DNA of 64,000 nucleotides from an uncultured bacterium (GCA_963845185.1 CAWJRG010000009.1:384001-448000); one strand, 5' to 3'. Numbered from the stretch's first letter, positions 18,535-63,402 are shown. Made by a program: numbers and translations. The notes: generated by a model not told the origin, from the sequence alone.

Positions 18535-18634
18535 TTACAGCTTGTTTTCGGTAAAAGCCTCAGACTTGAGCGGGTATAAGCAAGAGTAATATTTTTGCCG
18601 AGCCTATTGATGACTTGCAAAAATAAACTCTTGC
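18535..18634 (+). ncRNA. Candidate structured RNA, copy 1 of 3 (lnt-surE spacer)
   Basis: Hairpin ending GACTTGAGCGGGTATAAG; stem GCAAGAGT/ACTCTTGC; AA/A internal loop; stem TATTTTTGC/GCAAAAATA; loop containing CTATTGATGACTT. Confidence 0.7.
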
Positions 18635-18663
18635 AATAATTTTAACGGAGGATAATTTTTTTA

Positions 18664-19452
18664 GTGAAAAAACCATATATTGTAATATCGAACGACGACG
18701 GCATCAATGCCAAAGGATTTAAAGAGTTATACAGCGCAATCCCAGATGGATGCGAAATACTCGCAATAGCCCCAAGTAATGAAAGAAGCGGGGCATCCCA
18801 CAGCGTGACGCTTGACAAGCCCCTGACAGCAGAAATAGTAAAATTTCTTTATATTCATGCTTACAAAGTTAATGGGACGCCGACTGACTGCGTAAAACTG
18901 GCGCTTGCGAATTTCATAAAACGCGTGCCTGACCTCGTGGTATCGGGAATAAACCACGGGCCGAATACCGCTAGCAACATCATCTATTCCGGCACTATAG
19001 GCGCGGCAGCCGAAGCGGCTTTCCTTGGAATACCGGCGCTTGCTTTTTCCCTATACAGCTATGACGAAGACGCGGATTTTACATTTGCAAAAAAAATAAT
19101 AAGAAACACCATAAAAAAGGTCCTGAAAAAGGAAATCAAAATAAAAAAATACGGCCTTCTTAACGTCAACATCCCATACGTGAAAGAAAATAAAATAAAG
19201 GGTATTAAAATACTTCCCTTGGGAAAATATTTTTACAATGAAAAATATAGGTGCAAAGGCAAGGGCAATAAAAGGGAATATTTCCTGTTTTCCGAAGGCA
19301 GGAAAATACAAAGCAACAAAACAGGCATGACCGACGCGCATGCCATTGAAAAAGGCTTTGTCACCATGACTCCACTGCACTTTGACATGACGGATTACGG
19401 GTTCTTGAAAGAGTTAAGGAATAAAACCGCGCACGGCATAATTTCCGAATGA
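18664..19452 (+). CDS. surE: 5'/3'-nucleotidase SurE
   Basis: SNDDG, GTPTDCV, VSGINHGPN, YSGTIGAA. Confidence 0.96.
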   Translation: MKKPYIVISNDDGINAKGFKELYSAIPDGCEILAIAPSNERSGASHSVTLDKPLTAEIVKFLYIHAYKVNGTPTDCVKLALANFIKRVPDLVVSGINHGPNTASNIIYSGTIGAAAEAAFLGIPALAFSLYSYDEDADFTFAKKIIRNTIKKVLKKEIKIKKYGLLNVNIPYVKENKIKGIKILPLGKYFYNEKYRCKGKGNKREYFLFSEGRKIQSNKTGMTDAHAIEKGFVTMTPLHFDMTDYGFLKELRNKTAHGIISE

Positions 19453-21656
19453 ATTACATAAAAGTGGCGGTATATGCAAATATAGACAGGCTGCTGACAT
19501 ATAAAACAGACCTTGATGTTTCTGATAAAAAGGGCTGTAGGGTAATTGTGCCACTGGGCAGGAAATACGCAAGCGGAGTCATTATCGAGCAGTTAGCCGG
19601 GGGAAAGTCAAACAATCTGCCTGAGGAAAAAATCAAACAGGTTTACAAATTTCTTGATGAAAAACCTGTGATTGACGATAAAATGATAAAACTGGGATTG
19701 TGGGCCTCAGACTATTATTTGTCGGCGCCGGGTACGATATTTTCAGCTATGCTTTCTGCCCTGAACAAGATCGTCTCAAGGCGGGTTATCGCCTTGGTAT
19801 TACCGGCAGCGGATTTGGAAAAGCTTGGGGATAATGAGAAAAAAATAATCGAATTTCTTAAGAGCAAAAGGAGAAAAAGGGCCTTTTTCAAGGACATGGA
19901 AAAAAAGCTCGGGATAAAGGATACGGACGGGGCTGTCAAGGCCCTGAAAGAAAAAGGCATAATAACCGACGCGGACGAGGCTGCGATAAATATAGTAAAA
20001 AGCAAAATGTTCGGGCAAGATACAATTGGCCAGGACAAGGCAAAAGAAATAGAATTAAACAGTTTCCAGAAAGAGGCACTGGGGAAAATATCGGAGAATA
20101 TCGGCAAAAACCAGTACAAGACTTTTCTGCTTTTCGGCATAACAGGTTCGGGCAAGACCGAAGTTTATATACGCGCGGTAAAATGCTGCATCCAAAAAGG
20201 CAGGAAGGCGATAGTGCTCGTGCCCGAGATATTCCTGACGCCGCAGATGCTCGAGAGGTTCCAGCAGGAATTCAAGGATAGTATAGCGGTGTTCCACAGC
20301 GGCCTGAAGCAAAGCGAGCGGCTTAATGAATGGCAGAAGATGAAAGACGGGGCTGTGGACATAGTCATAGGCACGCGCTCGGCAGTATTCGCGCCTTTTG
20401 CGGACCTGGGGCTTATAATAGTGGACGAGGAATTCGACAGCTCTTTCAAGCAGGAAAACAACCCCAAATACAACGCAAGGGACCTGGCTGTTTACAGGGG
20501 GAAAATAAGCAATGCGACCGTGATACTCGGGAGCGCAACACCGTCCATTGAAACCTATAATAATGCCAGGTCCGGGAAATATGAATTTATAAAGCTGCCC
20601 GAAAGGATTGCGGCAAGGCCGATGCCTGAGGTTAAAATCATTGATTTAAAGTTTGACAGCAAAGTTGAGAAATTTTTTTTTCTTTCCGAAACACTTCTGC
20701 AGGAAATGAGGGCTTCGCTTGGAAATAACGAGCAGGTAATACTTTTTATCAACCGCAGGGGGTTTTCGAATTATGTGTTATGCAGGAAATGCGGATACGT
20801 GGAGAAATGCGTCAACTGCGACATACCGCTTATATACCATAAGCACGATGACATGTTTATCTGCCATTACTGTGGGTTCGAAAAGAAACCTGAGGTTTTT
20901 TGCCCTATGTGCAAAACCAGGCTTTTGTACAAGGGAGTCGGCACGCAAAAAGTCGAGGAAATAATAAGTAAGTTTTTCCCGGGGAAAAAAATAGAAAGGA
21001 TAGACATTGACTCAATGCGCGACAAGCAAAGGTACTTTGAGGTTTATAAAGCCATTAAAGACAGGGAAGTGGATATACTCATAGGTACACAGATGATAGC
21101 CAAAGGTTTTGACTTTCCTGAAGTGACTTTTGTCGGCGTCGTAAGCATTGATACTATATTAAACCTGCCTGATTTTAGGTCGGAAGAAAGGGTGTTCCAG
21201 CTTTTAATGCAAGTTGCAGGCAGGACAGGAAGGGGGGACAAGCCAGGTAAAGTAATAATCCAGACTTTTAACCCAGGGAATACGGCAATACAAAGCGTAA
21301 AGAACTATGAAACCGAAAAATTTTACGAGGAACAAATTAAAATAAGGAAAAAATTAAATTACCCGCCTTTTTCAAGGCTGGCGCAGATAATAGTACACGA
21401 TAAAAATGAGGAAAAATGCGCGAAAAGCGCGGATGAAGCGCGCAATCATATCGACGTATTAATAAAAAGGGAAAATATAAAATCGATAGGCATCCTTGGG
21501 CCAGCTCCGGCGCCCTTGTCAAGAATCAGGGGAAAATATCGCTACAGCATCATATTGAAAGGCACGTCTTTGTCTGATTTGAATTATATCGCGAGGGAAA
21601 TGAAGACAGGGATAAAGGGCTTGGAAATAACAATAGACCCGATAAATGTGTTATAA
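19449..21656 (+). CDS. priA: Primosomal protein N' (PriA)
   Basis: GITGSGKTEVY, DEE, GSATPS, two Zn-finger Cys clusters, GTQMIAKG, QVAGRTGR. Confidence 0.96.
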   Translation: MNYIKVAVYANIDRLLTYKTDLDVSDKKGCRVIVPLGRKYASGVIIEQLAGGKSNNLPEEKIKQVYKFLDEKPVIDDKMIKLGLWASDYYLSAPGTIFSAMLSALNKIVSRRVIALVLPAADLEKLGDNEKKIIEFLKSKRRKRAFFKDMEKKLGIKDTDGAVKALKEKGIITDADEAAINIVKSKMFGQDTIGQDKAKEIELNSFQKEALGKISENIGKNQYKTFLLFGITGSGKTEVYIRAVKCCIQKGRKAIVLVPEIFLTPQMLERFQQEFKDSIAVFHSGLKQSERLNEWQKMKDGAVDIVIGTRSAVFAPFADLGLIIVDEEFDSSFKQENNPKYNARDLAVYRGKISNATVILGSATPSIETYNNARSGKYEFIKLPERIAARPMPEVKIIDLKFDSKVEKFFFLSETLLQEMRASLGNNEQVILFINRRGFSNYVLCRKCGYVEKCVNCDIPLIYHKHDDMFICHYCGFEKKPEVFCPMCKTRLLYKGVGTQKVEEIISKFFPGKKIERIDIDSMRDKQRYFEVYKAIKDREVDILIGTQMIAKGFDFPEVTFVGVVSIDTILNLPDFRSEERVFQLLMQVAGRTGRGDKPGKVIIQTFNPGNTAIQSVKNYETEKFYEEQIKIRKKLNYPPFSRLAQIIVHDKNEEKCAKSADEARNHIDVLIKRENIKSIGILGPAPAPLSRIRGKYRYSIILKGTSLSDLNYIAREMKTGIKGLEITIDPINVL

Positions 21657-21745
21657 AGACACTGCTTATTGGCATAAGGAAAATGCAGGCGGCAGGGTGT
21701 TTTGGAGTTGAAAATGATTTTTTTCTGTGTTAAAATCTTTTTGCC

Positions 21746-22111
21746 ATGATAAAAGGAATCGGAATTGACATATGTGATACACAAAAATTAAAATCAAAAA
21801 TAAGGAATAACAGGAAGTTTTTGAAGCGTGTGTTCAGCGCAAGGGAAATAAAGTACTGCAAAAATAAAAGAAATTCAATCCTGCACCTGGCTGGCAGGTT
21901 TGCGGCAAAGGAAGCTTTTATAAAGGCTATTTCGATTGTAAACGGAATTAATTTGAATAAGATTGAAATCGCAAATAACCGCAACGGGATGCCTGATATT
22001 GTTCTTAACAAAGGCATAAAGGCTCTTTTAAGAAAGAAGAAAGGGAAAAAAATAACAATCAGCATAACGCATATAGATACGGTTTCAGCAGCCACGTGCG
22101 TGATTGAGTGA
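21746..22111 (+). CDS. acpS: Holo-ACP synthase
   Basis: GIGIDI, AGRFAAKEAFIKA, ISITH. Confidence 0.95.
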   Translation: MIKGIGIDICDTQKLKSKIRNNRKFLKRVFSAREIKYCKNKRNSILHLAGRFAAKEAFIKAISIVNGINLNKIEIANNRNGMPDIVLNKGIKALLRKKKGKKITISITHIDTVSAATCVIE

Positions 22112-22152
22112 TGAAAAATTGGGTTGTGCTGCAATCAAATTGAGGAGAAAAA

Positions 22153-23700
22153 ATGTATCTTGTTACTTCTTCTGAAATGAAGGAAATAGACAGAATAACG
22201 ACAGAGGAATATAAAATTCCTGCTTCTGTTTTGATGGAAAACGCAGGTGCAAATGTTGTGATGGCTTTAAACCAGGAATTCGCGTCATTATTTATGCGTC
22301 GGGTTTATGTCTTTTGCGGGCAGGGGAATAATGGCGGCGACGGTTTTGTAGTTGCACGCCACGCAAAGGCTGAAGGTGCACAGGTAAAAGTATTTTTTAC
22401 AGGGGATGTTTCAAAACTTACTTCCGAATCAAAAATGAATTTTGACATACTGGATAAATACGGAGTGGAAGTAACGGAATTAAAAGAATCAAGCGACATT
22501 GAAAAGTACCAAAGTGACATATTATCGTCCGATATTATAGTTGACGCGTTATTTGGCACTGGCATTAATAAAGCAGTGGAGGGTTTTTTTGCCAAATTGA
22601 TAGTATTTTTAAATATGACAGGCAAATATATTGTAAGTGTTGATATTCCTTCTGGTATAGACGCTGATACCGGCGACGTCAAGGGCGTGGCAATATATGC
22701 GGACTTGACAATCACGTTTGGCCTGCCGAAAATCGGCCTGGCAATTTACCCTGGGCTGGAATATGTCGGCAAGCTTGTAGTTGCAGACATTACTTTTCCG
22801 CAGCAACTCTTATCGGAGCCAAGGCAAAATGTATTGATAACGAGAGATATTGTTGTACCTTTACTGCCTTACAGGCATCCAAATGCGAATAAAGGCCATT
22901 TTGGGCCTATTTTTATAATCGGCGGTTCGCCGAGTTTGTTAGGGGCTGTTGTGTTGACAGGCAAGGCTGCTTTAAAAACAGGTGCAGGGATAGTTAATAT
23001 CGGACTGCCTGAAAGCTTGTGCAATACAGCTAAAAGCAGAAGCGACGAAATAATAGTGTCGGCATTTAAGGAAACAGCGGATGGCTGCATTGCGGAAGCA
23101 AATTACGACAGGATAATGGAAATTTCAGGAAAGGCAAAAGTCGTTGCCATAGGGCCGGGGATAGGTAGAAATAAGGAAACGCAATCTCTTGTAAGGAAAC
23201 TGGTAAAAACAATTAAAAAACCCATGGTTATTGATGCGGACGGCCTTAATGCAATAGCTGAAGATAAAGAATGCTTGCAAAAAATTTATAAAGATGTTAT
23301 ACTAACTCCACATATTGGCGAAATGTCAAGGCTTGCAAATATTAAGATGGAAGATATTATAAGAGATAAAATTGGAGTTTTAAGAAAATTTGTCAATGAT
23401 TATAAAGTGAATGTTCTTTTGAAAGATGGACGTTCTATTCTGGCAGATGCGGATAAAAATGTGTATGTAAATACCACTGGTAACTCCGGAATGGCAACAC
23501 CCGGAAGCGGCGATGTATTAACCGGTGTAATTGCCGCATTCATGGCTCACGGCATGTTATCTGCGCAAGCAGGAATAATAGCAAACTATGTGCACGGTTT
23601 GGCTGGTGATATATTACGCGGTGAAAACGGCGAAGAAGGAATAATAGCCGGGGATTTGGCAAAAGCCTTACCGCGCGCAATAAAAAATTTAAAACAATAG
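22153..23700 (+). CDS. nnr: Bifunctional NAD(P)HX epimerase/dehydratase
   Basis: LMENAG, GNNGGDG, DALFGTG, VIDADGLN, TPHIGE, GSGDVLTG. Confidence 0.95.
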   Translation: MYLVTSSEMKEIDRITTEEYKIPASVLMENAGANVVMALNQEFASLFMRRVYVFCGQGNNGGDGFVVARHAKAEGAQVKVFFTGDVSKLTSESKMNFDILDKYGVEVTELKESSDIEKYQSDILSSDIIVDALFGTGINKAVEGFFAKLIVFLNMTGKYIVSVDIPSGIDADTGDVKGVAIYADLTITFGLPKIGLAIYPGLEYVGKLVVADITFPQQLLSEPRQNVLITRDIVVPLLPYRHPNANKGHFGPIFIIGGSPSLLGAVVLTGKAALKTGAGIVNIGLPESLCNTAKSRSDEIIVSAFKETADGCIAEANYDRIMEISGKAKVVAIGPGIGRNKETQSLVRKLVKTIKKPMVIDADGLNAIAEDKECLQKIYKDVILTPHIGEMSRLANIKMEDIIRDKIGVLRKFVNDYKVNVLLKDGRSILADADKNVYVNTTGNSGMATPGSGDVLTGVIAAFMAHGMLSAQAGIIANYVHGLAGDILRGENGEEGIIAGDLAKALPRAIKNLKQ

Positions 23701-23710
23701 GAGGAAATAT

Positions 23711-24175
23711 ATGATTTCACCAATTCTAATTCTGCTAGTTTCCTTTTTATTTTTGATAATGTGGGGATGGATAATTACTATGTTTGTCGCTAATTTTTTA
23801 ATAAAAAGGAAAATAAACGTCTTAATAAGCCAGCCATTGTCAATAGAACAGAAGGAAGAACTTGATAACCTCCAGCTTGACCTTGATATAAATGCTTACC
23901 GCGCAAAAATGTCAAAAAGAATAGTTTTTGTATTCAGTTTGTTTTATGTAATACTTGCCTTGGCGCTGGTTTGGCTCAACAGCAAATACACGCTTTTTAC
24001 TTATGACGGGCTTGTTGATAATTTGAAACTTACCATGCTTATAGTGATATTGCTTTTTGTGCCATCATATGTTGGCCTGGAAATTATAAGCAATACGGAG
24101 GGCGCATCGAGCGACATAGCGGCCAAGCTTAAATTCACTGAAGAGTTAAAGCCGGGCGAAGAAGTTGAAGTTTAA
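23711..24175 (+). CDS. Hypothetical membrane protein (3 TM)
   Basis: SD GGAGG, three hydrophobic segments, operon context. Confidence 0.65.
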   Translation: MISPILILLVSFLFLIMWGWIITMFVANFLIKRKINVLISQPLSIEQKEELDNLQLDLDINAYRAKMSKRIVFVFSLFYVILALALVWLNSKYTLFTYDGLVDNLKLTMLIVILLFVPSYVGLEIISNTEGASSDIAAKLKFTEELKPGEEVEV

Positions 24176-24533
24176 ATACATAGCAGCGGTAATAATAGCA
24201 ATAGTTTTGATTGCGGGGTGCGCAGGAGCACAAATAAAAAAAGGGGCACTGGAAGTCAAAATTGATCCCGAAAAAGGCATAGCCCCTGGTACAATTGTCA
24301 GCGTGGAAGTAAAAGCGCCTGATGATGCTGTAAAAGTTTACGGGTATCTCGATATATGGCCGGATTTCCGTATATTCCTGAAATACGACCCCAATAATAA
24401 AATTTGGTTTAGAAAACAAATGATTCCTGTTGATTTAGTATTTCCACAAAGAGGAGAGTTTTTAATAAAGATTGAAGCTATAAATAAAGCAGGGGAAAAA
24501 TACCAGGCCGAAAAGAAAATTTCAACATTTTGA
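24165..24533 (+). CDS. Hypothetical lipoprotein, Ig-like
   Basis: Lipobox LIAG-C; beta-rich mature part. Confidence 0.7.
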   Translation: MKFKYIAAVIIAIVLIAGCAGAQIKKGALEVKIDPEKGIAPGTIVSVEVKAPDDAVKVYGYLDIWPDFRIFLKYDPNNKIWFRKQMIPVDLVFPQRGEFLIKIEAINKAGEKYQAEKKISTF

Positions 24534-24585
24534 CATAAAACACCCAAAGGATTCATACCTATTATTTGAAGGAGGATTTTAGATT

Positions 24586-25404
24586 ATGACAAAATCAGGC
24601 AAAAATAAAATAAGAACAGCAGAAGTACAGCCGGCTGAACCGCATACGATTGAAACGCAGCATCAAAATCCAAAGAGCAACATGAGCAAGATATTTGGAC
24701 TTATTATCCTTATTATCCTTCTCTTTTTCGCATATAAAATAATTGATTATTATACCGGCTGGGGTAATACTGAAAAGGTAATAAAAAGACATATTGACGA
24801 TGCGGAAAAAAGCATAATTTATAAAAGGTACAGTTCGGCGATATTTGAATATAATTTCATCATTAAAAAATGGGGCGGGAAGGAAAAATATAAGGATTAT
24901 GTAAAGCAGGCAAAACTCTCACTCGCAAAAACATACAAAGATTCAGAGCAATATATTAGCGCCATAGACGCATATAAAGCACTTATTAACGAATACAAGG
25001 ATAGCAACAGGGATATGTATGCGTGGCTTTTATTAGAACTTGGGGATTCCTATAACAGCATATTAAATACTGAAGAAGCTATAAGAACATATCAGTTGGT
25101 TATAGATGAATTCAAAGACAGCGACTGGGCCGCTGAAGCTTTTTTCGGCATAGCGGAGGCGTATAAATCAAAAAAAGATTATAAAAATGCGCTTGTTTAC
25201 TATAGCACAGTTGTGAATAAATACCAAAAAGGGTTTTTAAGCGCCGAGGCAATGACTAATATGGGAAAAATATACGAGCAGGAAAATAACATCAAGCAAG
25301 CATTTAAAATATACGAAAAAATAATTAAAGATTATCCGGATATTGTAACCGAAGAAGCAAAATTGAGATACGATGTTTTATCCCAAAAATTAAAGATTAA
25401 ATGA
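24586..25404 (+). CDS. Membrane-anchored TPR protein (CpoB/BamD-like)
   Basis: Single TM, then TPRs with A...Y..VI..Y/F pattern. Confidence 0.75.
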   Translation: MTKSGKNKIRTAEVQPAEPHTIETQHQNPKSNMSKIFGLIILIILLFFAYKIIDYYTGWGNTEKVIKRHIDDAEKSIIYKRYSSAIFEYNFIIKKWGGKEKYKDYVKQAKLSLAKTYKDSEQYISAIDAYKALINEYKDSNRDMYAWLLLELGDSYNSILNTEEAIRTYQLVIDEFKDSDWAAEAFFGIAEAYKSKKDYKNALVYYSTVVNKYQKGFLSAEAMTNMGKIYEQENNIKQAFKIYEKIIKDYPDIVTEEAKLRYDVLSQKLKIK

Positions 25405-26839: not shown

Positions 26840-26853
26840 TTTGAGGGGACCCA

Positions 26854-53131: not shown

Positions 53132-53189
53132 TTTTTACACCTTTGAATTAAAAAAAATTTTATGCAGGATTTTACTATGCCCTGCAATT

Positions 53190-55523
53190 TTATTGTTGAG
53201 GCTTACCCTCTTGCTGTTTGGCAATTTCTTTCTGCAGGTCAGGGTTAAGCTGGAAAGCCTTTGAAAGATATGGATTGGCTTGATCCCTTTTCCCTGTGGC
53301 TGCATAAAGAACTCCAAGGTTATAGTAAGCCTGGGCGAAATCCGGCGTCAATTCTACAACTTTTAGGTAATATTTTTCAGCGTCATTGAATTTTTTGCTT
53401 GTGAAATAAATATTTGCAAGCTTAAAAGCCGCGGTTGAAGCGAGCTGTTTATCACATTGCATGAGAGAGTCAAGAATTGGTGGTATTTTATCAAGCTGAT
53501 AAAGCAAAAAATACAGGTCTATGAGATTAAAATAAAAAAGGCCAGTGACAGGAGCCCTTTTTATAGCTTCTGCATAATAATATATTGAACTATTGAAGGA
53601 GTCCATATTTACGAATTTCCCGGAAGCAAAATCAGGGTTTTGCATCCTGCCGAGCAGGGAGTATATCCGGGCTATATTTCCCCAATAATAGGAATTGCCC
53701 GGATTTAAATCAGTGCCTTTTTTATATTCTTTGATTGCAATTTCTATATAATTTGCGACTGACTGTATAAGTTGCTGTTTTTCATCGATAGTCGGTGGTT
53801 TGGTAGTTGATGTTAACGCAGTGTACATTTGCAGGGCAAGCTGTTCGTAAGCTAAACCTAGATAAACATGGTATTTAACTTCGTCCGGTTCCTCTCTAAC
53901 TGAAATTTCATGTTCTTTTACAGACAAGTCCCATCTGTTATAGACATCGCCAAGGATTTTACCCCTGTTATAGTGCACATCAGCGTCAAATATGCTGTAT
54001 GCCCTGAATGAGAGGAAAAATGCGAGAAAAACAGCCCCGAACTGCAATATCCACCTGAAAATTATGTTTGCTTCCGAAGACCTGTAAAACACAAAGTCTT
54101 TTTTTTTGGTACCGTAAAGGTCGTTGTAAATTACAGCATGGATGCCCATGAATAAATAAAACGCGGTATTTATTGCCGCTACGCCGAAACTGAATATATT
54201 TTGTATAAAATACGCAATAAAGGCGGCAAACATGCCGAAAGAAAGGATTTTAAGATCGTATTCCTTTATGCGCCTGAACCCGTCAGCCCACAACTTTATA
54301 TAAGCCACAATTAAAAGCAAATAAATGCCCAGCGAAGACAGACCCATGGTCGAAGGTATATTCAGGAGCTCGTTATGCGCGGTCCTTGACGATACATTGG
54401 CTCCGTCAATTTGCGCGAAATTCGTTCCCTCGTAAGCAGGGAACACGGTCTTAAAGGTGTCAACGCCAGTCCCCAAAAAAGGGTGGGCTTTAATAACTTT
54501 GAAAGCAGGGATCCATATATGCAGGCGAGATATTTGCAGGCTGTTTTTCACATGAACTATTGAATTCAACAAGCGGAATGACGCATCTTTGCCTATTGTT
54601 AAACTCAGGGCTACAGACAGTATAATTACAACAAGCAGACCGACAATCCAGACTTGAAATTTTTTAACGAGTGTCCGTAAAACCAAGAAAACTGAAATGT
54701 GAGTCTCCTCCGAAGTTTTCACAATGTCTTTATACCCAACGTAAAGGCCATAAGAAATGAAAGACAGAAAGGCAAAAACAAAACCCAGGAAAGGGCCGCG
54801 GCTTTGCGTGCCGATTAAAGCCATGTAAAGCAACACAAAAAGCACAACCAGCAACATTGCGAAATTTTTTTTCTGGTTTTTTAGCAGGATAAGGAAAAAA
54901 GATATAGTGACAGGTATTACCATTATTATAAGAGCGCCCAAAAAATTAGGATTTCCCATAGTTGCGAAAAAGCGTCCTTTTATGACGGACGTATCGTTCC
55001 ATTTTATTATGTCATACCCGAAATACTGGGCTATGGCATACACCGTAATTATTAGACCGGAAAACAAAAAGGCCCAATTCAGAACAAAAAACTGTTTTTT
55101 CCCCTTTAAATTCTGGGTTGCTATATAATAAATTGCAACATAATTTATATTTGAAAGCGAGCCTGCAAAATTTTCATATTCGCCCCTGAAACTTATGGAA
55201 GGGGATACACTGTGAAAAGTGGTTATGATATTTAAAATAACCCATAAAAACATAGGTAAATCGAGAGGGGTAGGCGTGAAGGAAAATTTTCCCAGCTCAA
55301 GAGTTTTTATCAGCCATATACCCAGCATTACGGAAGTGAGTATCCTTAAAAGTGTCAGTTTGGGCATTTCAAACTGGTCGTAAGAAACAATGTTAAAGTA
55401 AATAGGAATTGTAAAAATAGTTATAACGAGCAAATAAAACAATATTTTATCGCACCATTCGACGACCAAATTTCCGTTATTGATTATTACCTGAGGTTTT
55501 TGCTGTATTTTATCTTTTGCCAT
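53190..55523 (-). CDS. O-antigen ligase / O-oligosaccharyltransferase-like (Wzy_C) protein with TPR tail
   Basis: ATMGNPNFLG, TQSRG, RLHIW, HPFLGTG.DTF, AHNELL; TPRs at the C-terminus. Confidence 0.87.
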   Translation of the reverse strand: MAKDKIQQKPQVIINNGNLVVEWCDKILFYLLVITIFTIPIYFNIVSYDQFEMPKLTLLRILTSVMLGIWLIKTLELGKFSFTPTPLDLPMFLWVILNIITTFHSVSPSISFRGEYENFAGSLSNINYVAIYYIATQNLKGKKQFFVLNWAFLFSGLIITVYAIAQYFGYDIIKWNDTSVIKGRFFATMGNPNFLGALIIMVIPVTISFFLILLKNQKKNFAMLLVVLFVLLYMALIGTQSRGPFLGFVFAFLSFISYGLYVGYKDIVKTSEETHISVFLVLRTLVKKFQVWIVGLLVVIILSVALSLTIGKDASFRLLNSIVHVKNSLQISRLHIWIPAFKVIKAHPFLGTGVDTFKTVFPAYEGTNFAQIDGANVSSRTAHNELLNIPSTMGLSSLGIYLLLIVAYIKLWADGFRRIKEYDLKILSFGMFAAFIAYFIQNIFSFGVAAINTAFYLFMGIHAVIYNDLYGTKKKDFVFYRSSEANIIFRWILQFGAVFLAFFLSFRAYSIFDADVHYNRGKILGDVYNRWDLSVKEHEISVREEPDEVKYHVYLGLAYEQLALQMYTALTSTTKPPTIDEKQQLIQSVANYIEIAIKEYKKGTDLNPGNSYYWGNIARIYSLLGRMQNPDFASGKFVNMDSFNSSIYYYAEAIKRAPVTGLFYFNLIDLYFLLYQLDKIPPILDSLMQCDKQLASTAAFKLANIYFTSKKFNDAEKYYLKVVELTPDFAQAYYNLGVLYAATGKRDQANPYLSKAFQLNPDLQKEIAKQQEGKPQQ

Positions 55524-55573
55524 CTTGATTTAGGCTCCGAATTTAATGATTTTATAATAAAATTAATAAAGAT

Positions 55574-55602
55574 AGTATAGGAATAAAAATATGCTAAGTC
55601 AA
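55574..55602 (-). promoter_or_regulatory. Sigma70 promoter (leftward)
   Basis: TTGACT-17-TATACT on the minus strand. Confidence 0.65.
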
Positions 55603-55689
55603 TATATAAATTGCCAAACATAAAACGAGTCGAGGTAATACAATCATTTTACTCCGCTTTTATTAACGTAATCCTAATTATTTATATTC

Positions 55690-55718
55690 TTGACTTCACG
55701 ATAAAAAACTATTAGAAT
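55690..55718 (+). promoter_or_regulatory. Sigma70 promoter for sppA
   Basis: TTGACT-17-TAGAAT. Confidence 0.65.
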
Positions 55719-55785
55719 ATCTTGCGTATTTAAACACATTTTTATTGGGAAATATTTTGTCTAAAAATCGACTTAGGAGACGATA

Positions 55786-56706
55786 ATGAAAAAAAAGATC
55801 TTATGGGGTTTAATATTAGGCATATTGGTAATATATCTTGCTTTCGCGCAGTTTGGACATTTGTTTGACCAAAAACAAAGTTTATTGTACGGGACGAGAA
55901 TTGCACTTATAAATATAGATGGGGAAATTTTGGAAACAACGCATACTCTTGAAATGTTAAATTATTACAGCAATATGCCCAATGTAAAGGTTATTGTCTT
56001 AAGAATCAACAGCCCGGGCGGGGGAGTTGCCGCATCGCAGGAAATATTCAAGCAGATTAAAAAAACTAAGGAAAAAGGTAAAAAAATTGTTGTTTCAATG
56101 TCTGATTCTGCAGCCTCGGGTGCATACTATATATCTGCTGCGGCTGACAAAATAGTCGCGAATCCAGGAACAATTACTGGCAGTATTGGCGTGATTATAA
56201 GCTATCCGTACGCAAAAAAGCTTCTTGATAAAATCGGTCTTGATTTTATAACAATAAAAAGCGGTCAATATAAGGATGTAGGCTCGCTTTCGAGGGAAAC
56301 TTCGGTAAACGAAAGAAAGCTGTTACAAAACATGATTAATGATGTGCTAAATCAATTTGTTGATGATGTTGTAAATTCCAGGCTTGAGGCGCTGGCAAAA
56401 GCATTTAAAATCACAGAAAAGAAAGAAGAGACAAAAAGAAAACTCGTTAAGGAATATATGCTTAAAAATGTGGCAGATGGAAGGATACTCACCGGCAGGC
56501 AGGCATTACAGCTCGGCCTGGTTGACGAGCTGGGAAACATTGACGACGCGATAGAGGCAGCTGCAAAAATGGCCGGTATTAAAGGAAGGCCTCTTGTCAT
56601 ATCAGAAAAACCAAAACAATCATTCGCAAATATGCTTTCGTCAATGATTGGAAATATAAATTTTAGGCAGGATTCAGGGGCGATGATAAAGTATATTTTA
56701 AAATAA
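55786..56706 (+). CDS. sppA: Signal peptide peptidase SppA (S49, single domain)
   Basis: RINSPGG, AASGAYYI, TGSIGV, KSGQYKD, GLVDELG. Confidence 0.94.
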   Translation: MKKKILWGLILGILVIYLAFAQFGHLFDQKQSLLYGTRIALINIDGEILETTHTLEMLNYYSNMPNVKVIVLRINSPGGGVAASQEIFKQIKKTKEKGKKIVVSMSDSAASGAYYISAAADKIVANPGTITGSIGVIISYPYAKKLLDKIGLDFITIKSGQYKDVGSLSRETSVNERKLLQNMINDVLNQFVDDVVNSRLEALAKAFKITEKKEETKRKLVKEYMLKNVADGRILTGRQALQLGLVDELGNIDDAIEAAAKMAGIKGRPLVISEKPKQSFANMLSSMIGNINFRQDSGAMIKYILK

Positions 56707-56709
56707 ATA

Positions 56710-56800
56710 ATACCGCTAATTCTTTTGATTTGAGCGGGTATAAGTTTTTGCAATACTTTGCCTGCGACTGTTGATGGCTTGGCAAAGTAAATGAATTCTA
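56710..56800 (+). ncRNA. Candidate structured RNA, copy 2 of 3
   Basis: Shortened first hairpin ending GATTTGAGCGGGTATAAG; AA/A loop; stem TACTTTGCC/GGCAAAGTA; loop containing CTGTTGATGGCTT. Confidence 0.7.
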
Positions 56801-56812
56801 AGGAGGAATTGT

Positions 56813-59122
56813 ATGGCTGATAACGTTGATAATCAGGATAAAAAAGGTCCGAAAGATGTAACTCCAAATCCTTTGGAAGAAGCTACGGCAAAAAAACAAA
56901 CACCACCACCGGAAACGGAAGAAGCGGCCCCTGCGCCTGGGCAACAGGCTGAAGGTGTTGCTGAACCGGCAGCAGAACAGCCCAAGCCCGAAGAGCCGCC
57001 AAAGATTTTAAAAGGGATATTTCTTAATTCTATTACATGGAACAGGACAGCCCAGCTTATTCTTATTGTTGCCGGAGTTTTTGCTTTAATTCTTTCAATA
57101 AGCATGAAAGTTTTTATTCCTTTGCCCGCTACTATTGGCGCGTTGCTGCTTGCACTTGCCGCATTTTTTGACAGCTACATACTTAAAAAATTCCACAAAG
57201 ACGCAGGTAAACTGCAGATAATGCTCAGATATGTGTTAACGGGAGTTTTAGGAATAATGGCTATAGTTTTTGCAATTCAGCTTGCCAAGCCTTACAGCAG
57301 GGAAATGAACAACAACCTAATGATGTTCGCTTTTTTGATCGCACTGATAGTAGTAATAATCAATTTTGTGCTGTATTTGCATAAGAATAAAGATGCGGCT
57401 CTTGCGGATATTTATTTATTTGTTGCATTTGTGGCAATTGTTATGGCATTTTATATTTTCAGGTATTTTTATATAGTGCCGGCCATGACACTTGCACTTG
57501 CAGGAGCTATACTTCTTTCCATGTCACTTTCAAAGGAGCCTTTGCGCACAGACGAAAAGTTTCCAATTAAAATACTGGGTGTAATCCTTATGCTTTTGTT
57601 TCTGGCGCCGATTGTGTATTATGCATTGACAATTTATTTTACTCCTCAGGCGAACGTCATGGAATATACAACTGTTTCACCCGAGTACAACAACAGGCCA
57701 GAGAATCTTGCGTGGTCGGGCGACAATAAGTCCCTTGTATTTAGTGTTTTTAGTAAAAAGAAAAAAATGGGAATAGTTTCAATTATTAATGCCCTCAGCG
57801 CAGGGACGGCCGAATTACCCCCTGAAGGCGATACTAAGTTAACACTCCCGGAATTTATTGATGCTCCTCAATGGAATAAGGCGAGCAATTTTATAATATT
57901 GACGGGTGGAAATACTGAAACAGGCCCGAGAAATATATGGGGGATCTCGCTTGCGCTATCAAAAATGCAGCAGCCCTTAAAAAACAATAAAGATAAAGAA
58001 AATAACACGCGCCTTCTTGTATCCGATATAAAAAAAATAATCGATGTGGAATGCTTGCCGGTTACTCATAAAACAGCATGGTCTTCAGATTCGAAGAAAT
58101 TTGTGTTCGCGGCAAAAACAAAAAAGGAAGGATTATTCAACCTCTGGACTTCTGATATAAACAGGCAGTCGATAACGCCGATTACAAAGGGCTTTAAGAA
58201 AATTTTTCCTTTATGGTCCCCTGCAGAAGATAAAATCCTTTATGTGAGCAAAACAGATAGCTATTCATATCTTAAAATTTCAAATTATGACGGTTCAAAC
58301 GCGCATGAATTCAATCCCGGCAGAAAAAGCGACAGGGAACTGCTGCCTTGTTGGGACCCGAATGAGTCAAAGGTTATTTTCCTTGCTAAAGGCAAGGAGC
58401 TTATGATAATGAATGCCAATGCGACAAAAAAAGCAAAGCTCACCAGGGAAACATTTACTCCGAGAGATCACTGGCTTTCCCCAGAAAGAAAAAAATTAAG
58501 AATTAACTTTACTGAAACAGGAGACATATGGAGGGTATGGACCATTGAAAACAACGGCAAACATAATAAGGAAATATTTAAACAGGCCTGCAGCGGATTT
58601 ACCCAGCCTAAATGGAGCTACGACGGCAATAATATTGCATTAAACGCGGATTACGGGAAAACGAACTCAATATGGATATTCGGGAAAAACGGCGAAATCC
58701 CTTTGAAAATTTATACGTCAGAGGATAAAATAAGTTTTCTTGAATGGTCCCCGTCATCAAAAAAACTCGCTTTTCTTGTAAAGAAGTTTTTAAAACAGGA
58801 GCTCTGGGTGATCAACAGCGACGGAACCAAGCCTAAAAAGCTTTATTCCACTTTTGGCGACATCGGAAACGTTTCATGGGATAACGACGACAAGCGCCTT
58901 GTTTTTGACGAAACATTCAGCCATATATTGTTTGTGCCCGAAATAACCACTGCGAAAATAGTCCATTCCAAAACCGGGGAAATATGGAGGCTGTTACCCT
59001 ATAACTTTTATTCAAAATACCCAGCGTGGTCCGAAAAGGGCGACATGATAGCTTACATAGGCTGGAAAGAGATATGGTTGCCTTCAGCTGTATATAAAAT
59101 TTGGATAGCAAGGCTGCAATAA
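56813..59122 (+). CDS. Multi-pass membrane protein with TolB/PD40-type beta-propeller domains
   Basis: Acidic Pro-rich N-tail, about 7 TM, then repeated PxWS.D/WSP blades. Confidence 0.75.
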   Translation: MADNVDNQDKKGPKDVTPNPLEEATAKKQTPPPETEEAAPAPGQQAEGVAEPAAEQPKPEEPPKILKGIFLNSITWNRTAQLILIVAGVFALILSISMKVFIPLPATIGALLLALAAFFDSYILKKFHKDAGKLQIMLRYVLTGVLGIMAIVFAIQLAKPYSREMNNNLMMFAFLIALIVVIINFVLYLHKNKDAALADIYLFVAFVAIVMAFYIFRYFYIVPAMTLALAGAILLSMSLSKEPLRTDEKFPIKILGVILMLLFLAPIVYYALTIYFTPQANVMEYTTVSPEYNNRPENLAWSGDNKSLVFSVFSKKKKMGIVSIINALSAGTAELPPEGDTKLTLPEFIDAPQWNKASNFIILTGGNTETGPRNIWGISLALSKMQQPLKNNKDKENNTRLLVSDIKKIIDVECLPVTHKTAWSSDSKKFVFAAKTKKEGLFNLWTSDINRQSITPITKGFKKIFPLWSPAEDKILYVSKTDSYSYLKISNYDGSNAHEFNPGRKSDRELLPCWDPNESKVIFLAKGKELMIMNANATKKAKLTRETFTPRDHWLSPERKKLRINFTETGDIWRVWTIENNGKHNKEIFKQACSGFTQPKWSYDGNNIALNADYGKTNSIWIFGKNGEIPLKIYTSEDKISFLEWSPSSKKLAFLVKKFLKQELWVINSDGTKPKKLYSTFGDIGNVSWDNDDKRLVFDETFSHILFVPEITTAKIVHSKTGEIWRLLPYNFYSKYPAWSEKGDMIAYIGWKEIWLPSAVYKIWIARLQ

Positions 59123-59273
59123 TTCAGATAACGAAGGGTTGTTGTGCGCGGCAAAAAGATATAGGTTTACAAATCACAAATTACGTGATAAGCTTATATT
59201 CATTAATTACGAAGTTAATTATTAAACATTCGAACAATCTCATATAAAGCTTGATTCTCTTTTTTTTACAACG

Positions 59274-59291
59274 AAGTGAATTTTTTCACAT
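59274..59291 (+). promoter_or_regulatory. Rex-like (or CRP/FNR-like) operator upstream of hdrC
   Basis: AAGTGAA-TTTT-TTCACAT versus Rex TTGTGAA-N4-TTCACAA. Confidence 0.5.
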
Positions 59292-59332
59292 TAATTAATT
59301 TTATTAAAATTCATTTTTTAAGGAGTAAAAAA

Positions 59333-59926
59333 ATGTTGTCAAACAAAAAAGAAAAGGAACTTTCGCAGATTATTGCAAAAGAATTTGAACATTTGCCCGA
59401 GGGTGAAAAACTTAAGGAGTGCATCCAGTGCGGGACATGCTCGGGAAGCTGCCCTGTATCATTTGCCATGGATTATACACCACGTCAAATTATCGCAATG
59501 CTCCGCGCCGATATGATAAATGAGGTTTTAAAAAGCGACACGGTCTGGATATGCGCTTCGTGCTATCTTTGCGGCGCGCGCTGCCCGGCGGGCATTAATT
59601 TTACAGACTTTATGTACCATTTGAAACAGGAAGGCATCAAATACGGCATAGGGCCGCGCAACAAGAAAGCCATCAAGATGGCAAAAGATTTCGGCACTGT
59701 AGTGAGCGAGCACGGGCGGAACTTTGAATCCGAGTTACTGGTCAGGTATAACCTGCGCACAAACCCCTTTAATTTTTTCAAACTAATACCGCTTGCTATA
59801 AAAATGCTTTTGACAAAAAGGATGCCTTTTTTCCCGTCGAGAGTTAAAGGCATTAAGTTCATAAGAAAGGTCTTGAAATCTAAAACCACGCCCAAGCCTG
59901 CGGAAAAAGCCGAGGTGGTATCATGA
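59333..59926 (+). CDS. hdrC: Heterodisulfide reductase subunit C
   Basis: CIQCGTCSGSCP and CASCYLCGARCP; start moved to ATG 59333 after SD AGGAG. Confidence 0.9.
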   Translation: MLSNKKEKELSQIIAKEFEHLPEGEKLKECIQCGTCSGSCPVSFAMDYTPRQIIAMLRADMINEVLKSDTVWICASCYLCGARCPAGINFTDFMYHLKQEGIKYGIGPRNKKAIKMAKDFGTVVSEHGRNFESELLVRYNLRTNPFNFFKLIPLAIKMLLTKRMPFFPSRVKGIKFIRKVLKSKTTPKPAEKAEVVS

Positions 59927-60795
59927 AAAAATATACTTATTACCCGGGATGTTCGCTTGAAATAAGCAATAAACCTTACGACGAATCCACAAAGGAGCTG
60001 TTCAAGGCGCTCGGGCTGCAGCTTGAGGAAGTGCCTGACTGGAACTGCTGCGGCGCTACCATGTATATGAGTTTCGACGAGCACAAAGCTGTGTACCTCG
60101 CGGCGCGCAACCTGGCAATAGCTGAAAAGACCGGATATGACATGGCTGTGCCATGCAGCGCATGTTTTACTGTGCTGCAAAAAGCCAAAAAATTCCTGAA
60201 AGCAGAAGAAGGCCTGGAGGAAAAAATAAATTCCATGCTTAAGGAAGAGGGGCTGGCATACAGCGGTAAAGTCAAAATCAGGAACATTCTTGAAATAATA
60301 TATAACGATATCGGCGCTGACATTAAAAGCTCGGTAAAGCGCAATTTGAAGGATATAAAAGTAGCCTGCTACTACGGCTGCCAGCTTGTAAGGCCAAAGG
60401 GCACTTTTGACGATACCGAGAACCCGGAAAAGCTCGACAAGCTAATGTCCTGGTGCGGAGCATCGCCGGTGTTTTTTGACGCAAAGACGAAATGTTGCGG
60501 CGGAATGCTCATGACAACAAAGGAGGATGTTGCCATGAAGCTCGTTCGAGACATACTTTCTGCGGCCAAACAGGCAGGCGCTGACTGCCTTGTGACCGCT
60601 TGCCCGCTTTGCCAGATAAATCTCGAAGGGTACCAGGCGGCAATAAGCAGGAAATTCAAGGAAAAACTCGACATACCAATACTTTATTTTACTCAGCTTG
60701 CCGGATATGCGCTAGGCATAGATGAAAAAAGGCTGGGGATAAAGGAAAATTTTACTGATTCAAAGAAAACCCTTGCCAAAGCAGGAGGTAACTGA
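59923..60795 (+). CDS. hdrB: Heterodisulfide reductase subunit B
   Basis: YYPGC, WNCCG, PCSAC, YYGC, KCCG and ACPLC CCG domains. Confidence 0.93.
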   Translation: MKKYTYYPGCSLEISNKPYDESTKELFKALGLQLEEVPDWNCCGATMYMSFDEHKAVYLAARNLAIAEKTGYDMAVPCSACFTVLQKAKKFLKAEEGLEEKINSMLKEEGLAYSGKVKIRNILEIIYNDIGADIKSSVKRNLKDIKVACYYGCQLVRPKGTFDDTENPEKLDKLMSWCGASPVFFDAKTKCCGGMLMTTKEDVAMKLVRDILSAAKQAGADCLVTACPLCQINLEGYQAAISRKFKEKLDIPILYFTQLAGYALGIDEKRLGIKENFTDSKKTLAKAGGN

Positions 60796-60797
60796 CA

Positions 60798-62772
60798 ATG
60801 AATAAAGATAACGGCAAGCAAAAAAGAATAGGAGTTTATATCTGCCACTGCGGCACAAACATAGCCCACACTGTAAACGTAAACGAGGTGGCGGAATTCG
60901 CGAAAAAGCTGCCGGGCGTGGCGCTTGTAAAGGATTATAAATATATGTGTTCGGACCCGGGGCAGGAAATGATAAAAGAGGACGTGAAAAAAGACAACCT
61001 GACGCATATAGTCGTTGCATCGTGCTCGCCTCTTATGCACGAGCAGACTTTTAGGGGAGCTGTAAAAGCGGCGGGCCTGAACGAATTCATGTTCCAGATG
61101 GCAAATATCAGGGAGCAGTGCTCATGGGTATCCATGGACAATGCGCGTTCCACTGAAAAAGCAAAAAAACTTGTGGCAGCGGCTGTCAAAAGGGTGGGCA
61201 ATCACGAGCCGCTTGAGTTCAGGGAAGTGCCTGTGAACCCGGCAACCCTTGTGGTTGGCGGCGGCATAGCCGGAATAGAAGCTGCGCTGACCATAGCTGC
61301 TGCAGGGAAAAAAGTTTATCTGGTAGAAAAATCACCGACAATAGGCGGGCACATGGCGAAATTCGACAAGACTTTTCCCACGCTTGACTGCGCAGCGTGC
61401 ATTTTAACTCCTAAAATGGTTTCTGTAGCCCAGAATAAGAATATTGAACTCATGTCATATAGCGAAGTCGAGGATGTCAAGGGCTATGTCGGTAATTTTA
61501 CGGTACAAATAAGGAAAAAAGCCCGTTATATAGACGTATCAAAATGCACCGGCTGCGGGCTTTGCGAGGCCATATGCCCGGTGAAAAATATACCGAGCGA
61601 GTTTGAGGAAAATATCGGAAAAAGAAAATCCGTGTACAGGCCTTTTCCTCAGGCCATACCCTCGGCTTACATCATAGACATGGCTACATGCAAAAAATGC
61701 AAGGCGTGCATAAAAAAATGCGATAGGGGTGCGATAAACCTGGATATGAAAGATGAGATGGTGACAGTGGATGTGGGCAATATAATAGTGACGACAGGTT
61801 ATAATATATTTAAGGACAAGAAATACCTGGAACGGTACGGATACGGAATTTATGACAATGTTTACACTTCGCTTGAATTTGAGAGGTTCACGCATGCGAG
61901 CGGGCCGACAAACGGAACAATAGTAATGAAAGACGGCAAGGAGCCGAAGTCTGTCGCGATACTTCACTGCATTGGAAGCAGGGATACAAATGCAAACGAG
62001 CACTGTTCCAGAGTATGCTGTATGTATTCCATGAAGCTTGCGCACCTTATAAAGGAAAAAACAAGCGCGAAGGTTTATGAATTTTACATAGACATCCGCG
62101 CTTTCGGCAAGGGTTACGAGGAATTTTACAAGCGCTGTCTGCATGAAGAAGTGGATTTTATAAGGGGCAAAGGCGCTGAAGTGACGAAACTCGCGGAAAC
62201 AGAAGAGGAAAAGGGAAAACTGATAGTAAGGTTTGAGGATACACTCGCTGCGAAAGTCAGAAGGCTGCCTGTGGACATGGTTGTATTAAGCGTTGGACTT
62301 CAGCCTGCAAACGATGTGGATAAAACAGCAAAAATGTTTTCATTAAGCAGGAGCAAGGACGGGTTTTTTCTTGAAAAGCATCCGAAACTCGCGCCTGTCT
62401 CTACTGCGTCTGACGGTATTTACATTGCAGGATGCGCCCAGGGGCCTAAAGGACATTCCGGATACGGTTGCCCAGGCAAACGCCGCTGCTGCGCAGGCTC
62501 TGGCAAATATAGTAAGGGGAAAAATGGTGCTTGAACCAATAACTTCTTTTATTGATGAAAAATTGTGCGCCGGCTGCAAGCTGTGCATTAGCGTGTGCCC
62601 GTACGGCGCCATAGAATTTAACGAGACTAAAAAGGTTTCAGAAATAATAGAGGCTGTATGCAAGGGCTGCGGCACATGCGTAGCAGTATGCCCGTCAGGA
62701 GCTGCCAAGCAAAGAGGATACAAGGACCCGCAAATTTATTCTGAAATAGAAGCCATACTGGAGAAAGTGTGA
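60798..62772 (+). CDS. hdrA: Heterodisulfide reductase subunit A with a frameshift near 62450
   Basis: GVYICHCG, NIREQCSW, GGGIAG, KTFPTLDC, CSRVCC. GCAQGPK continues as DIPDTVAQA plus a ferredoxin domain in ORF 62371-62772. Confidence 0.93.
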
Positions 62773-62863
62773 TTGAGTGATAAGTGGTAAGAGAAATGCA
62801 AAAATTTTTCGCTTACCACACAACACATACCACATTTTATACCCAAAAACACGGAGGTAAGAT

Positions 62864-63295
62864 ATGAGTGAAACATTTGAACCGAGAATAGTAGCGTTTT
62901 TATGCCGCTGGTGCTCATATACAGGCGCTGACCTGGCAGGAACCAGCAGGATAAAATACCCGGAAAACGTCGTGCCAATAAAAGTAATGTGCTCTGGCCG
63001 CGTTGACCCGACGTTTATATTAAAATCTTTTTCCGACGGGGCTGACGGCGTGCTTGTATGCGGCTGCCATCCGGGCGATTGTCACTATAATATAGGTAAT
63101 TATAATATGCAGAAAAGGATACCCCTTATTTATAAAATGCTGGAAGGATTCGGAATAGAAAAAGAAAGGTTTATGCTTGAATGGGTTTCAGCATCTGAAG
63201 GCGACAGGTTTGCTGAAGTGGTGAACGAGATTACAGACAAGGTAAGAAAACTTGGTGCGCTGAAGTGGAATGAAATAAAAGAAACTGTTAAATAA
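62864..63295 (+). CDS. mvhD: Methyl-viologen-reducing hydrogenase delta subunit
   Basis: FLCRWCSYTGADLAG, MCSGRVDP, GCHPGDCHY, WVSASEG. Confidence 0.95.
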   Translation: MSETFEPRIVAFLCRWCSYTGADLAGTSRIKYPENVVPIKVMCSGRVDPTFILKSFSDGADGVLVCGCHPGDCHYNIGNYNMQKRIPLIYKMLEGFGIEKERFMLEWVSASEGDRFAEVVNEITDKVRKLGALKWNEIKETVK

Positions 63296-63300
63296 AAACT

Positions 63301-63402
63301 TGACACCTCTTGTCCTCGGCAGTAGCCTCGGACTTGAACGGGTGCTAAGATTCCGTAAGATTTTACCTGCGCTGTTGATGCTTGGTAAAATCAACGGACT
63401 CT
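63301..63402 (+). ncRNA. Candidate structured RNA, copy 3 of 3 (mvhD-mvhG spacer)
   Basis: GTCC-TC-GGC-AGTA-GCC-TC-GGAC-TTGAACGGGTGCTAAG; TCCGT/ACGGA; AA/A loop; GATTTTACC/GGTAAAATC; loop containing CTGTTGATGCTT. Confidence 0.7.

Follow-up and report, generated by a model that had tools for sequence, protein, structure and literature searches.

A dispersed two-hairpin element at ribosome-binding sites in a genome of candidate division FCPU426 (Goldbacteria)

The window analysed here is the whole 64-kb stretch CAWJRG010000009.1:384001-448000 from an uncultured bacterium (GCA_963845185.1), part of a 3.50-Mb genome that is 99.4% complete and is called G000 below (other G numbers are relatives, and L numbers are loci). 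An earlier note on this DNA had singled out three spacers, between lnt and surE, between sppA and a gene encoding a propeller protein, and between mvhD and mvhG, as sharing one two-hairpin architecture. Pfam agreed with these gene names: the flanking products are Lnt and SurE, the S49 peptidase SppA and a DPPIV_N-like propeller protein, and FlpD (MvhD) and a hydrogenase small subunit. The three spacer sequences also proved to be as that note had given them. A covariance model (R1) built from 26 copies of the element, 25 from elsewhere in the genome plus window copy 3, matched all three spacers, on the plus strand in each case, and nothing else in the window at E ≤ 1 (Table 1). The 13-nt motif that ends hairpin 1 has three exact occurrences in the window, the sole further match (two mismatches) being unrelated. 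As had been claimed, the AA/A internal loop is present and the 9-bp upper stems of the three hairpins 2, though unlike in sequence, are perfectly paired.

Table 1. Positions in the window of the three element copies and the adjoining ribosome-binding sites
Feature	Position	Strand	Remarks
Copy 1	18536-18637	+	R1 86.3 bits, E 1.7e-18; between lnt (stop 18531) and surE (start 18664)
Copy 1, hairpin 1	18536-18576	+	
Copy 1, hairpin 2	18580-18634	+	Lower stem 18580-18587/18627-18634, AA/A loop, upper stem 18590-18598/18617-18625
GGAGG after copy 1	18647-18651		13 nt past hairpin 2
Copy 2	56711-56801	+	R1 59.4 bits, E 4.3e-12; between sppA (S49 peptidase, stop 56706) and DPPIV_N-like propeller gene (start 56813)
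Copy 2, hairpin 1	56711-56740	+	Truncated, top deleted
Copy 2, hairpin 2	~56743-56799	+	Lower-stem mismatches (non-canonical pairs marked by R1)
AAGGAGG at copy 2	56800-56806		Abuts the element
Copy 3	63304-63404	+	R1 100.1 bits, E 8.6e-22; between mvhD (stop 63295) and hydrogenase small-subunit gene mvhG
Copy 3, hairpin 1	63304-63344	+	
Copy 3, hairpin 2	63347-63402	+	
mvhG Shine-Dalgarno site AAGGAGG	63403-63409	+	Directly abuts hairpin 2 of copy 3

The three window spacers are ordinary members of a family of two-hairpin repeats of about 100 nt, of which the genome carries about 150-190 copies rather than the three first reported. The hairpin-1 end motif, with at most one mismatch, occurs 156 times in G000 versus 10 times for the reversed control. 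An nhmmer search with a profile from 52 copies gave 193 matches, and R1 matched at least 149 among the 150 candidates scored. The copies have a median identity of 86% to their nearest neighbour, reaching 95% or more in only 6 of 111, and the family is therefore old; the mean over all pairs is 61%. Within the window copy 2 is a decayed family member, and copy 1 is atypical in the distance of its GGAGG from hairpin 2. For copy 3, alignment with relatives indicates that the mvhG start is most likely the ATG at 63417, an in-frame ATG lying also at 63411. A consensus scan of 55500-64000 found no terminator-like site in spacers 2 and 3, spacer 1 being outside the scan. The loop motif CT[AG]TTGATG.CTT described for hairpin 2 fits the window copies and fails for the family at large, in which other copies carry TTGAC or a short tip of the CCTTCGG type.

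Single-sequence folds and RNAalifold agree on the two-hairpin structure. The helix of hairpin 1 is irregular. Toward its base, which contains a two-U bulge, a conserved U-G pair and an internal loop, the sequence hardly varies, even between families, whereas the top is variable. Hairpin 2 forms a rod some 20 bp long, built from a lower stem of 9 bp, the AA/A internal loop, an A/U-rich upper stem of 9 bp and a small tip. It is free to vary in sequence but keeps its pairing, and at least five sequence types are found, each self-complementary. The internal loops of hairpin 1 and the AA/A loop of hairpin 2 are conserved; the joint between the hairpins is short and A/U-rich and is not conserved across families. 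In the predicted folds the GGAG core stays unpaired, leaving the Shine-Dalgarno core free. For hairpin 1 a kink-turn was considered and rejected on inspection, as the 5' strand lacks the required GA, and an anti-Shine-Dalgarno CCUC in hairpin 1 was dropped because it is not conserved across copies.

Over 26 copies (846 cells) 93.1% of stem cells are paired, versus 78.7% in column shuffles and 31-45% with slid partners. Compensatory change was seen in 20 of 33 pairs, and none of 500 shuffles reached any of the observed measures. When 44 independent nearest-neighbour pairs of copies were compared at 17 consensus base pairs, compensated double changes numbered 36, wobble changes 14 and disruptions 36; nearest-neighbour divergence is 8.2% in paired columns versus 13.9% in unpaired columns. 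The best evidence that the fold has been maintained in place comes from the spacer between a tetratricopeptide repeat (TPR) gene and radC, a locus that is syntenic in four genomes of two genera (G014, G020, G023 and G019): its four copies show 9 compensatory changes among 28 pairs, with a single broken cell. The earlier observation that stems diverge and still pair is upheld, far beyond the shuffled and slid controls and also among syntenic copies. Its companion observation, that G-U pairs favour the plus strand, was borne out as a count (240 sense versus 134 antisense in 125 copies) but not in stability, the antisense fold being slightly more stable.

Orientation was counted on a crude map of open reading frames (ORFs; at least 100 aa, greedy choice). 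Among the 193 matches, 135 have both neighbours on the strand of the element, 22 the downstream neighbour only, 10 the upstream neighbour only and 9 neither, and the remaining 17 lie inside an ORF call. Hence, between co-directional genes 135 copies are sense versus 9 antisense. A start codon (of an ORF of at least 60 aa) follows within 80 nt in 92 of the 125 copies parsed end to end, mostly 9-16 nt past hairpin 2, and GGAG or GAGG lies within 12 nt in 74 of 118 copies. The distance to the upstream ORF ranges from 0 to more than 1000 nt. As the spacing to the start codon mostly falls in a narrow range while the upstream distance varies, the family is anchored to the ribosome-binding site. A start within about 6 nt of a TAA stop, which had been taken for a trait of the element, is not one: the distances in the window are 4, 4 and 8 nt because these spacers are short. 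Adjacency to the Shine-Dalgarno sequence holds in long leaders too. Because the unit sits at the 5' edge of the Shine-Dalgarno core, the element would form the last 100 nt of a 5' leader or intercistronic spacer.

The genes so led are unrelated. By their N-termini they include argG- (argininosuccinate synthase-like), metK- (SAM synthetase-like), rplC- (L3), gatC- and recA-type genes and others; 77 element-led proteins entered the comparison, and about 75 or more unrelated genes have the unit at the edge of the Shine-Dalgarno core. Exported proteins are not enriched downstream of the element (26 of 77 versus 568 of 1542). We found no sign of an own promoter in G000, since a strict -10 box 3-8 nt before the unit occurs in 7 of 58 long-spacer copies and equally in 7 of 58 at control offsets; a loose -10 criterion, satisfied by 62 of 118 G000 copies and 10 of 19 copies in relatives, does not discriminate. 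A promoter inside the unit was rejected on inspection, the TTGAC of some loops having no consistent -10 partner. Genes in G000 are strongly biased in strand, with 2235 of 2631 crude ORF calls on the leading strand defined by GC skew and 93% of co-directional neighbour pairs on the local majority strand. Gene pairs on the minority strand have elements beside them less often than expected from their number (2 of 144 element sites versus 126 of 1796 pairs). A subfamily lies away from ribosome sites (C5:32834, C5:35490, C9:656610, C9:671476, C9:676580 and C1:208468 in G000), and its members have octamer repeats resembling TTTTCAAT on either side, as in ..ATTATCAA, the unit, then GTTTTCAATTTTCAAT.

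Comparison with relatives gave sites that are filled in one genome and empty in another. At rpsJ-rplC the G000 unit lies between the rpsJ stop and the ribosome site. The corresponding loci of 24 other genomes (23 of the order and one of the phylum) gave no R1 match at E ≤ 1, and in the 23 relatives with a readable spacer the ribosome site lies within about 30 nt of the stop, mostly immediately after it (one locus was unparsed). At mvhD-mvhG, the site of copy 3, all four orthologous loci (L090-L093, 63-75% identity) lack the unit, and in three of them stop and start overlap as ATGA, the ribosome site falling within the end of mvhD. In G000 (63230-63420) only a decayed AAAGAAA is left of the old ribosome site, and after the unit there is a new AAGGAGG; judging from this alignment, the junction is rebuilt around an inserted unit. 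In both rpsJ-rplC and mvhD-mvhG the unit is tolerated inside an essential or housekeeping operon.

A metagenome scan gave 30 loci, and 13 leader copies among them were compared with G000 over about 42 N-terminal residues, which is thin evidence of orthology. At seven gene starts with at least 75% N-terminal identity, the site was filled in the relative and empty in G000 in three cases (L134, L162 and L163) and filled in both in four. Where filled and empty sites could be aligned, they become homologous again at GGAG, and the sequences diverge directly past it. The G000 site at L153 holds two units, an older one that is clearly orthologous and another placed exactly between it and GGAGG, which can be read as array growth or, in reverse, as exact loss. 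At L149 and L156 the gene start is the same but the hairpin-2 type differs between the two genomes. These comparisons argue that the copies are insertions with exact unit borders, copied by a cut-or-copy-and-paste process; the TPR gene-radC locus was dropped as an ancestral 'master gene' on finding the orthologous spacer of G000 empty. Arrays of seven, three and two units were seen. The largest, on the minus strand of contig C9 outside the window (C9:916539-917175), consists of seven 100-nt units in tandem, with another insert breaking the last; a gene of 1100 aa follows about 240 nt downstream, and a TGTGATAAT box stands 7 nt ahead of the array's first unit.

By the searches made, the element is confined to one order of candidate division FCPU426 (Goldbacteria). 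Among 23 other genomes of the order 10 gave a match at E ≤ 0.001 with strict filters and 11 at E ≤ 1e-4 with laxer filters, spread over six families, whereas 17 genomes of other orders of the phylum gave none. In copy number G000 is an outlier, G014 being next with 16-18. The family f10 (19 copies in G014, G023, G019 and G001) has another arrangement: 17 of its copies are followed within 15 nt by a stable hairpin with an A-run before it, one of the 19 abuts a ribosome site, and 10 of 19 have a TATTAT-type box just upstream. No neighbour gene family is shared by the 11 stand-alone loci of G014. The f10 stand-alone copies could be free small-RNA genes with bidirectional terminators. Insertion next to the A-run of a terminator that serves a convergent gene would account for them equally well. 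The terminator hairpins have their A-run on the side of the element, and a convergent gene fits them at least as well. In the f10 copies L103-L117 (G014 and G023) the tip of hairpin 2 carries a conserved UCGUCGC...GCUCCUC, in which CUCCUC is complementary to the Shine-Dalgarno core; G000 copies lack it. At L037 (G003:C117) modules made of hairpin 2 alone are arranged in tandem as part of a longer repeat, about 150 nt in length, which seems to overlap coding-like sequence.

The element was compared with known RNA and mobile-element classes. Rfam gave no match to the whole window at gathering scores and chance-level matches only to copy 1 at E ≤ 10, and among 13 loci of relatives only a neighbouring transfer RNA passed; the first impression that this was no known family was correct. 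Y1 transposases (IS200-like, PF01797) are absent from G000 (0 matches). They are found in 27 of 40 relatives and their presence does not track that of the element. None of the 10 Y1 loci examined has element-like ends (no R1 match at E < 1), and in G001 a Y1 gene on the contig of one copy is unlinked to it. There is no long target duplication: the longest flank repeat averages 2.92 nt versus 2.75 +/- 0.11 in shuffled flanks, and 13 of 200 shuffles reach the observed value. A target repeat of 2-3 nt resembling AAG is possible. In 59 of 76 copies the last two letters of the 5' flank are AG, AA or GA, the flank being purine-biased and resembling the unit's own 3' end, and a 2-nt match of the flank with the unit's end was found 20 times versus 13.1 expected (4 of 2000 shuffles reach this). 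The bias is limited to two positions, with no conserved target word of 4-5 nt. Inspection of the alignment revealed no terminal inverted repeats, the 5' end TACCGCTTGTC... not being complementary to the 3' end ...AAACGnnnnC(A/T)AG. No autonomous parent was found; split copies enclose ordinary genes and no transposase. Hairpins fill the unit and its gain and loss are exact, which would fit a transposase-less IS200/IS605 derivative but is not specific to that family. The element departs from repetitive extragenic palindromes (REPs) in length and place, being about 100 nt long with two unlike hairpins upstream of start codons. By the features tested, the element is not a REP, a MITE (miniature inverted-repeat transposable element) or an IS200 derivative. 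The strong sense orientation is accompanied by neither long duplications nor a linked transposase, and the condition under which the earlier note would have given way to a DNA-level REP/MITE did not arise. Of the options that the earlier note had offered, a domesticated mobile repeat comes closest, and its doubt about a metabolite riboswitch was well placed given the unrelated downstream genes.

Other modules accompany the element. A second repeat of about 70 nt, present in about 30 copies, has two hairpins, GGGTAG...CTACCC followed by the perfect palindrome GTCAAATAGTCCAC.GGACTATTTGAC. It was seen at L012:1435-1500, L018 and L023 (G000 contigs C5 and C9) and at the metagenome loci L141 and L157, nested in the same orientation in the apical loop of hairpin 1 or 2 or between hairpin 2 and the ribosome site; the hairpins of its hosts stay intact. 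In about eight G000 copies (e.g., C10:122737, C9:17948, C9:137909 and C9:935045) hairpin 2 is replaced or followed by a conserved hairpin, GTCCATGCGAAGCATGGAG, which points to a mosaic BOX-like system of interchangeable modules.

Our preferred reading, which we hold with about equal belief and doubt, is that the element is a portable co-transcribed RNA module under selection for its fold, with hairpin 1 serving for docking and hairpin 2 as an insulator, stabiliser or processing site. Copying has placed the unit, with exact borders, at the Shine-Dalgarno core's 5' edge in about 75 or more unrelated genes, and selection would keep its fold for the sake of the RNA. A lineage-specific factor, either a protein or a nuclease, would dock on hairpin 1, and hairpin 2, beside the ribosome-binding site, would act as a structural insulator plus a 5' stabiliser or processing site. 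Translation and stability of the downstream cistron would then be uncoupled from the upstream context, and the stand-alone fold near terminator hairpins in other families might be a free small-RNA form. A more ambitious version, that the element is the RNA half of a Goldbacteria ribonucleoprotein system consisting of a free multicopy small RNA plus a leader tag on about 5% of mRNAs, with one factor reading hairpin 1, seems to us unlikely.

Several observations weigh against an RNA module. No partner protein was identified. The predicted antisense fold, at -39.6 versus -37.6 kcal/mol for the sense fold, is slightly the more stable one, the sense fold being more stable in 38 of 125 copies, and strand tests by folding energy give the sense strand no advantage. 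The gene strand is also the replication strand at 142 of 144 element sites, and since the two coincide, the orientation could follow replication rather than transcription. Seven of the 11 G014 copies examined are antisense between co-directional genes, and sense transcription with a gene is therefore not universal in the family. The exact position at the 5' edge of a purine run (AAG followed by GGAGG, or the A-run before the hairpin in f10) could reflect choice of a DNA target. Some of the compensatory 'changes' between neighbour copies may be whole-cassette swaps, given the different hairpin-2 types at the orthologous sites L149 and L156.

The main rival is that the element is a purely selfish DNA repeat in the manner of REPs and their mosaic clusters (BIMEs) or of a transposase-less IS200/IS605 element, with hairpins that act in single-stranded DNA for mobilisation only. 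The sense bias would then come from a strand-specific purine-run target (the AAG/GGAGG junction or a terminator A-run) and the lagging-strand template, with no role in RNA. We consider this rather improbable, although much fits it: the exact boundaries in gain and loss, the new unit stacked between an older unit and GGAGG, the tandem array of seven 100-nt units, the purine-biased 5' flank resembling the unit's 3' end, the antisense fold as stable as the sense fold and the scarcity by minority-strand gene pairs. Moreover, 3' abutment to a purine run characterizes both life styles, so that one rule explains both. It is less comfortable with the lack of a Y1 transposase in G000, the lack of any relation between Y1 genes and the element among the 40 relatives, Y1 loci without element-like ends, and the failure to find long target duplications, terminal inverted repeats or a conserved 5' target word past two purines. 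Adjacency to the ribosome site in long leaders, which offer many other AAG words, is likewise unexpected of it. Dead insertions should also decay, whereas old copies retain their stems, as is illustrated by the four syntenic copies, in which 9 pairs are compensated and a single cell is broken.

The remaining explanations keep a role for RNA. A Csr/Rsm-like global post-transcriptional regulon, in which one protein reads the base of hairpin 1 and the arrays and stand-alone units are sponges or decoys, would suit a hairpin-1 base that is sequence-invariant across families beside a hairpin 2 that keeps pairing only, leader copies ahead of unrelated genes (about 75 or more), arrays of 7, 3 and 2 units, and f10 copies that stand alone by terminator hairpins (17 of 19). 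We nevertheless think it quite improbable: no protein emerged as a candidate, a site of 100 nt cannot have originated separately before every gene so that mobility would be needed too, f10 would consist of nearly all 'decoys' with a ribosome-site 'target' in 1 of 19, and the genes beside stand-alone copies share no family. Processing punctuation, by self-cleavage or by an RNase III- or RNase E-type cut that leaves hairpin 1 as a 3' cap upstream and hairpin 2 as a 5' cap downstream, appears more doubtful still. Two hairpins with a short A/U-rich joint, intercistronic positions in the housekeeping operons rpsJ-rplC and mvhD-mvhG and conserved internal loops in hairpin 1 and (AA/A) in hairpin 2 are in its favour, as is hairpin 2 having the length of an RNase III substrate by comparison with phage T7 processing sites. 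Against this stand the lack of an Rfam ribozyme match, a joint that is unconserved across families and stand-alone copies that have nothing to punctuate. We give almost no credence to a riboswitch or other ligand-sensing leader. Its attractions are the leader position by ribosome sites and the f10 copies directly before terminator hairpins, which resemble an aptamer with its expression platform. These are outweighed by about 150-190 copies on unrelated housekeeping genes, tandem arrays, copies antisense to their neighbours or convergent on gene ends, an unsequestered Shine-Dalgarno core, terminator hairpins that suit the convergent gene at least as well and the absence of an Rfam match.

Among described systems the closest analogue is Neisseria REP2, the contact-regulated element, together with the similar IR-A/IR-B of Borrelia plasmids, compared here by description. 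In the account given by a review that also treats Correia elements, REP2 and IR-A/IR-B are dispersed repeats of about 100-150 bp with two predicted RNA stem-loops and no terminal inverted repeats, located immediately upstream of ORFs within the 5' untranslated region (PMC3184786). The same account has REP2 carrying its own promoter, ribosome-binding site and ATG in 23-26 copies linked to co-regulated genes (PMC3184786). The Goldbacteria element resembles REP2 in its two stem-loops, its lack of inverted repeats and its position immediately before ORFs. It differs in having no conserved promoter in G000 and no ATG, homology ending at or just before the GGAG core, and in its about 150-190 copies, many between cistrons and on unrelated genes, in its conservation across families of the order and in also standing alone. 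The TAACTGA direct repeats of marine Beggiatoaceae, as that report describes them, precede well over a hundred genes and were proposed to form a post-transcriptional network (PMC4679880). They too are lineage-specific and lie ahead of many genes, but are arrays of an unstructured heptamer. An integron attC array is a poor fit, as copies of the element lie inside housekeeping operons. We found no description of the element in the papers searched on FCPU426/Goldbacteria or on bacterial intergenic repeats, nor in Rfam; the accessible part of the Goldbacteria genome paper has no mention of 'intergenic' or 'transposase' and uses 'repeat' in a methods sense only.

BOX of Streptococcus pneumoniae, ERIC/IRU of enterobacteria and Correia elements of Neisseria are small modular intergenic repeats that are co-transcribed, form hairpins and can alter mRNA processing or stability. 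To our knowledge none of BOX, ERIC and Correia is anchored to the ribosome-binding site. Correia and ERIC have terminal inverted repeats, and Correia a TA duplication, whereas the element has no terminal inverted repeats on inspection and no long target duplication. REPs are 20-40 nt long, usually lie after genes and go with a Y1 (RAYT) gene. The element is like REP/BIME repeats and IS200/IS605 derivatives in being a hairpin repeat that lacks terminal inverted repeats and long duplications, shows strand bias and is gained and lost exactly, and unlike REP/RAYT systems in its 100-nt unit, two different hairpins, location before genes and lack of a Y1 gene in G000. In Csr/Rsm systems a motif lies by the ribosome sites of many mRNAs and is multicopy in stand-alone RNAs. 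Csr sites, however, are short GGA loops arising de novo, whereas the element is a copied 100-nt module without a conserved GGA loop.

If the element is only selfish DNA, its insertion at a purine run's 5' edge, be it at a ribosome site or at the A-run of a terminator, without a transposase that could be recognised would be an undescribed way of choosing sites. If the ribonucleoprotein version held, the factor would set the translation, stability or processing of a large evolvable regulon that includes ribosomal-protein and central-metabolism genes, and genes would enter or exit the regulon by gain or loss of a cassette. If the fold works in RNA, the element would be a natural 'plug-in leader', a structured cassette that lands exactly before ribosome sites, leaves the operons rpsJ-rplC and mvhD-mvhG unbroken and is retained long enough for compensatory changes. 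It would then provide a ready-made insulator part for synthetic operons and, for the Goldbacteria, a testable case of a mobile element bringing a set of genes under a common post-transcriptional signal.

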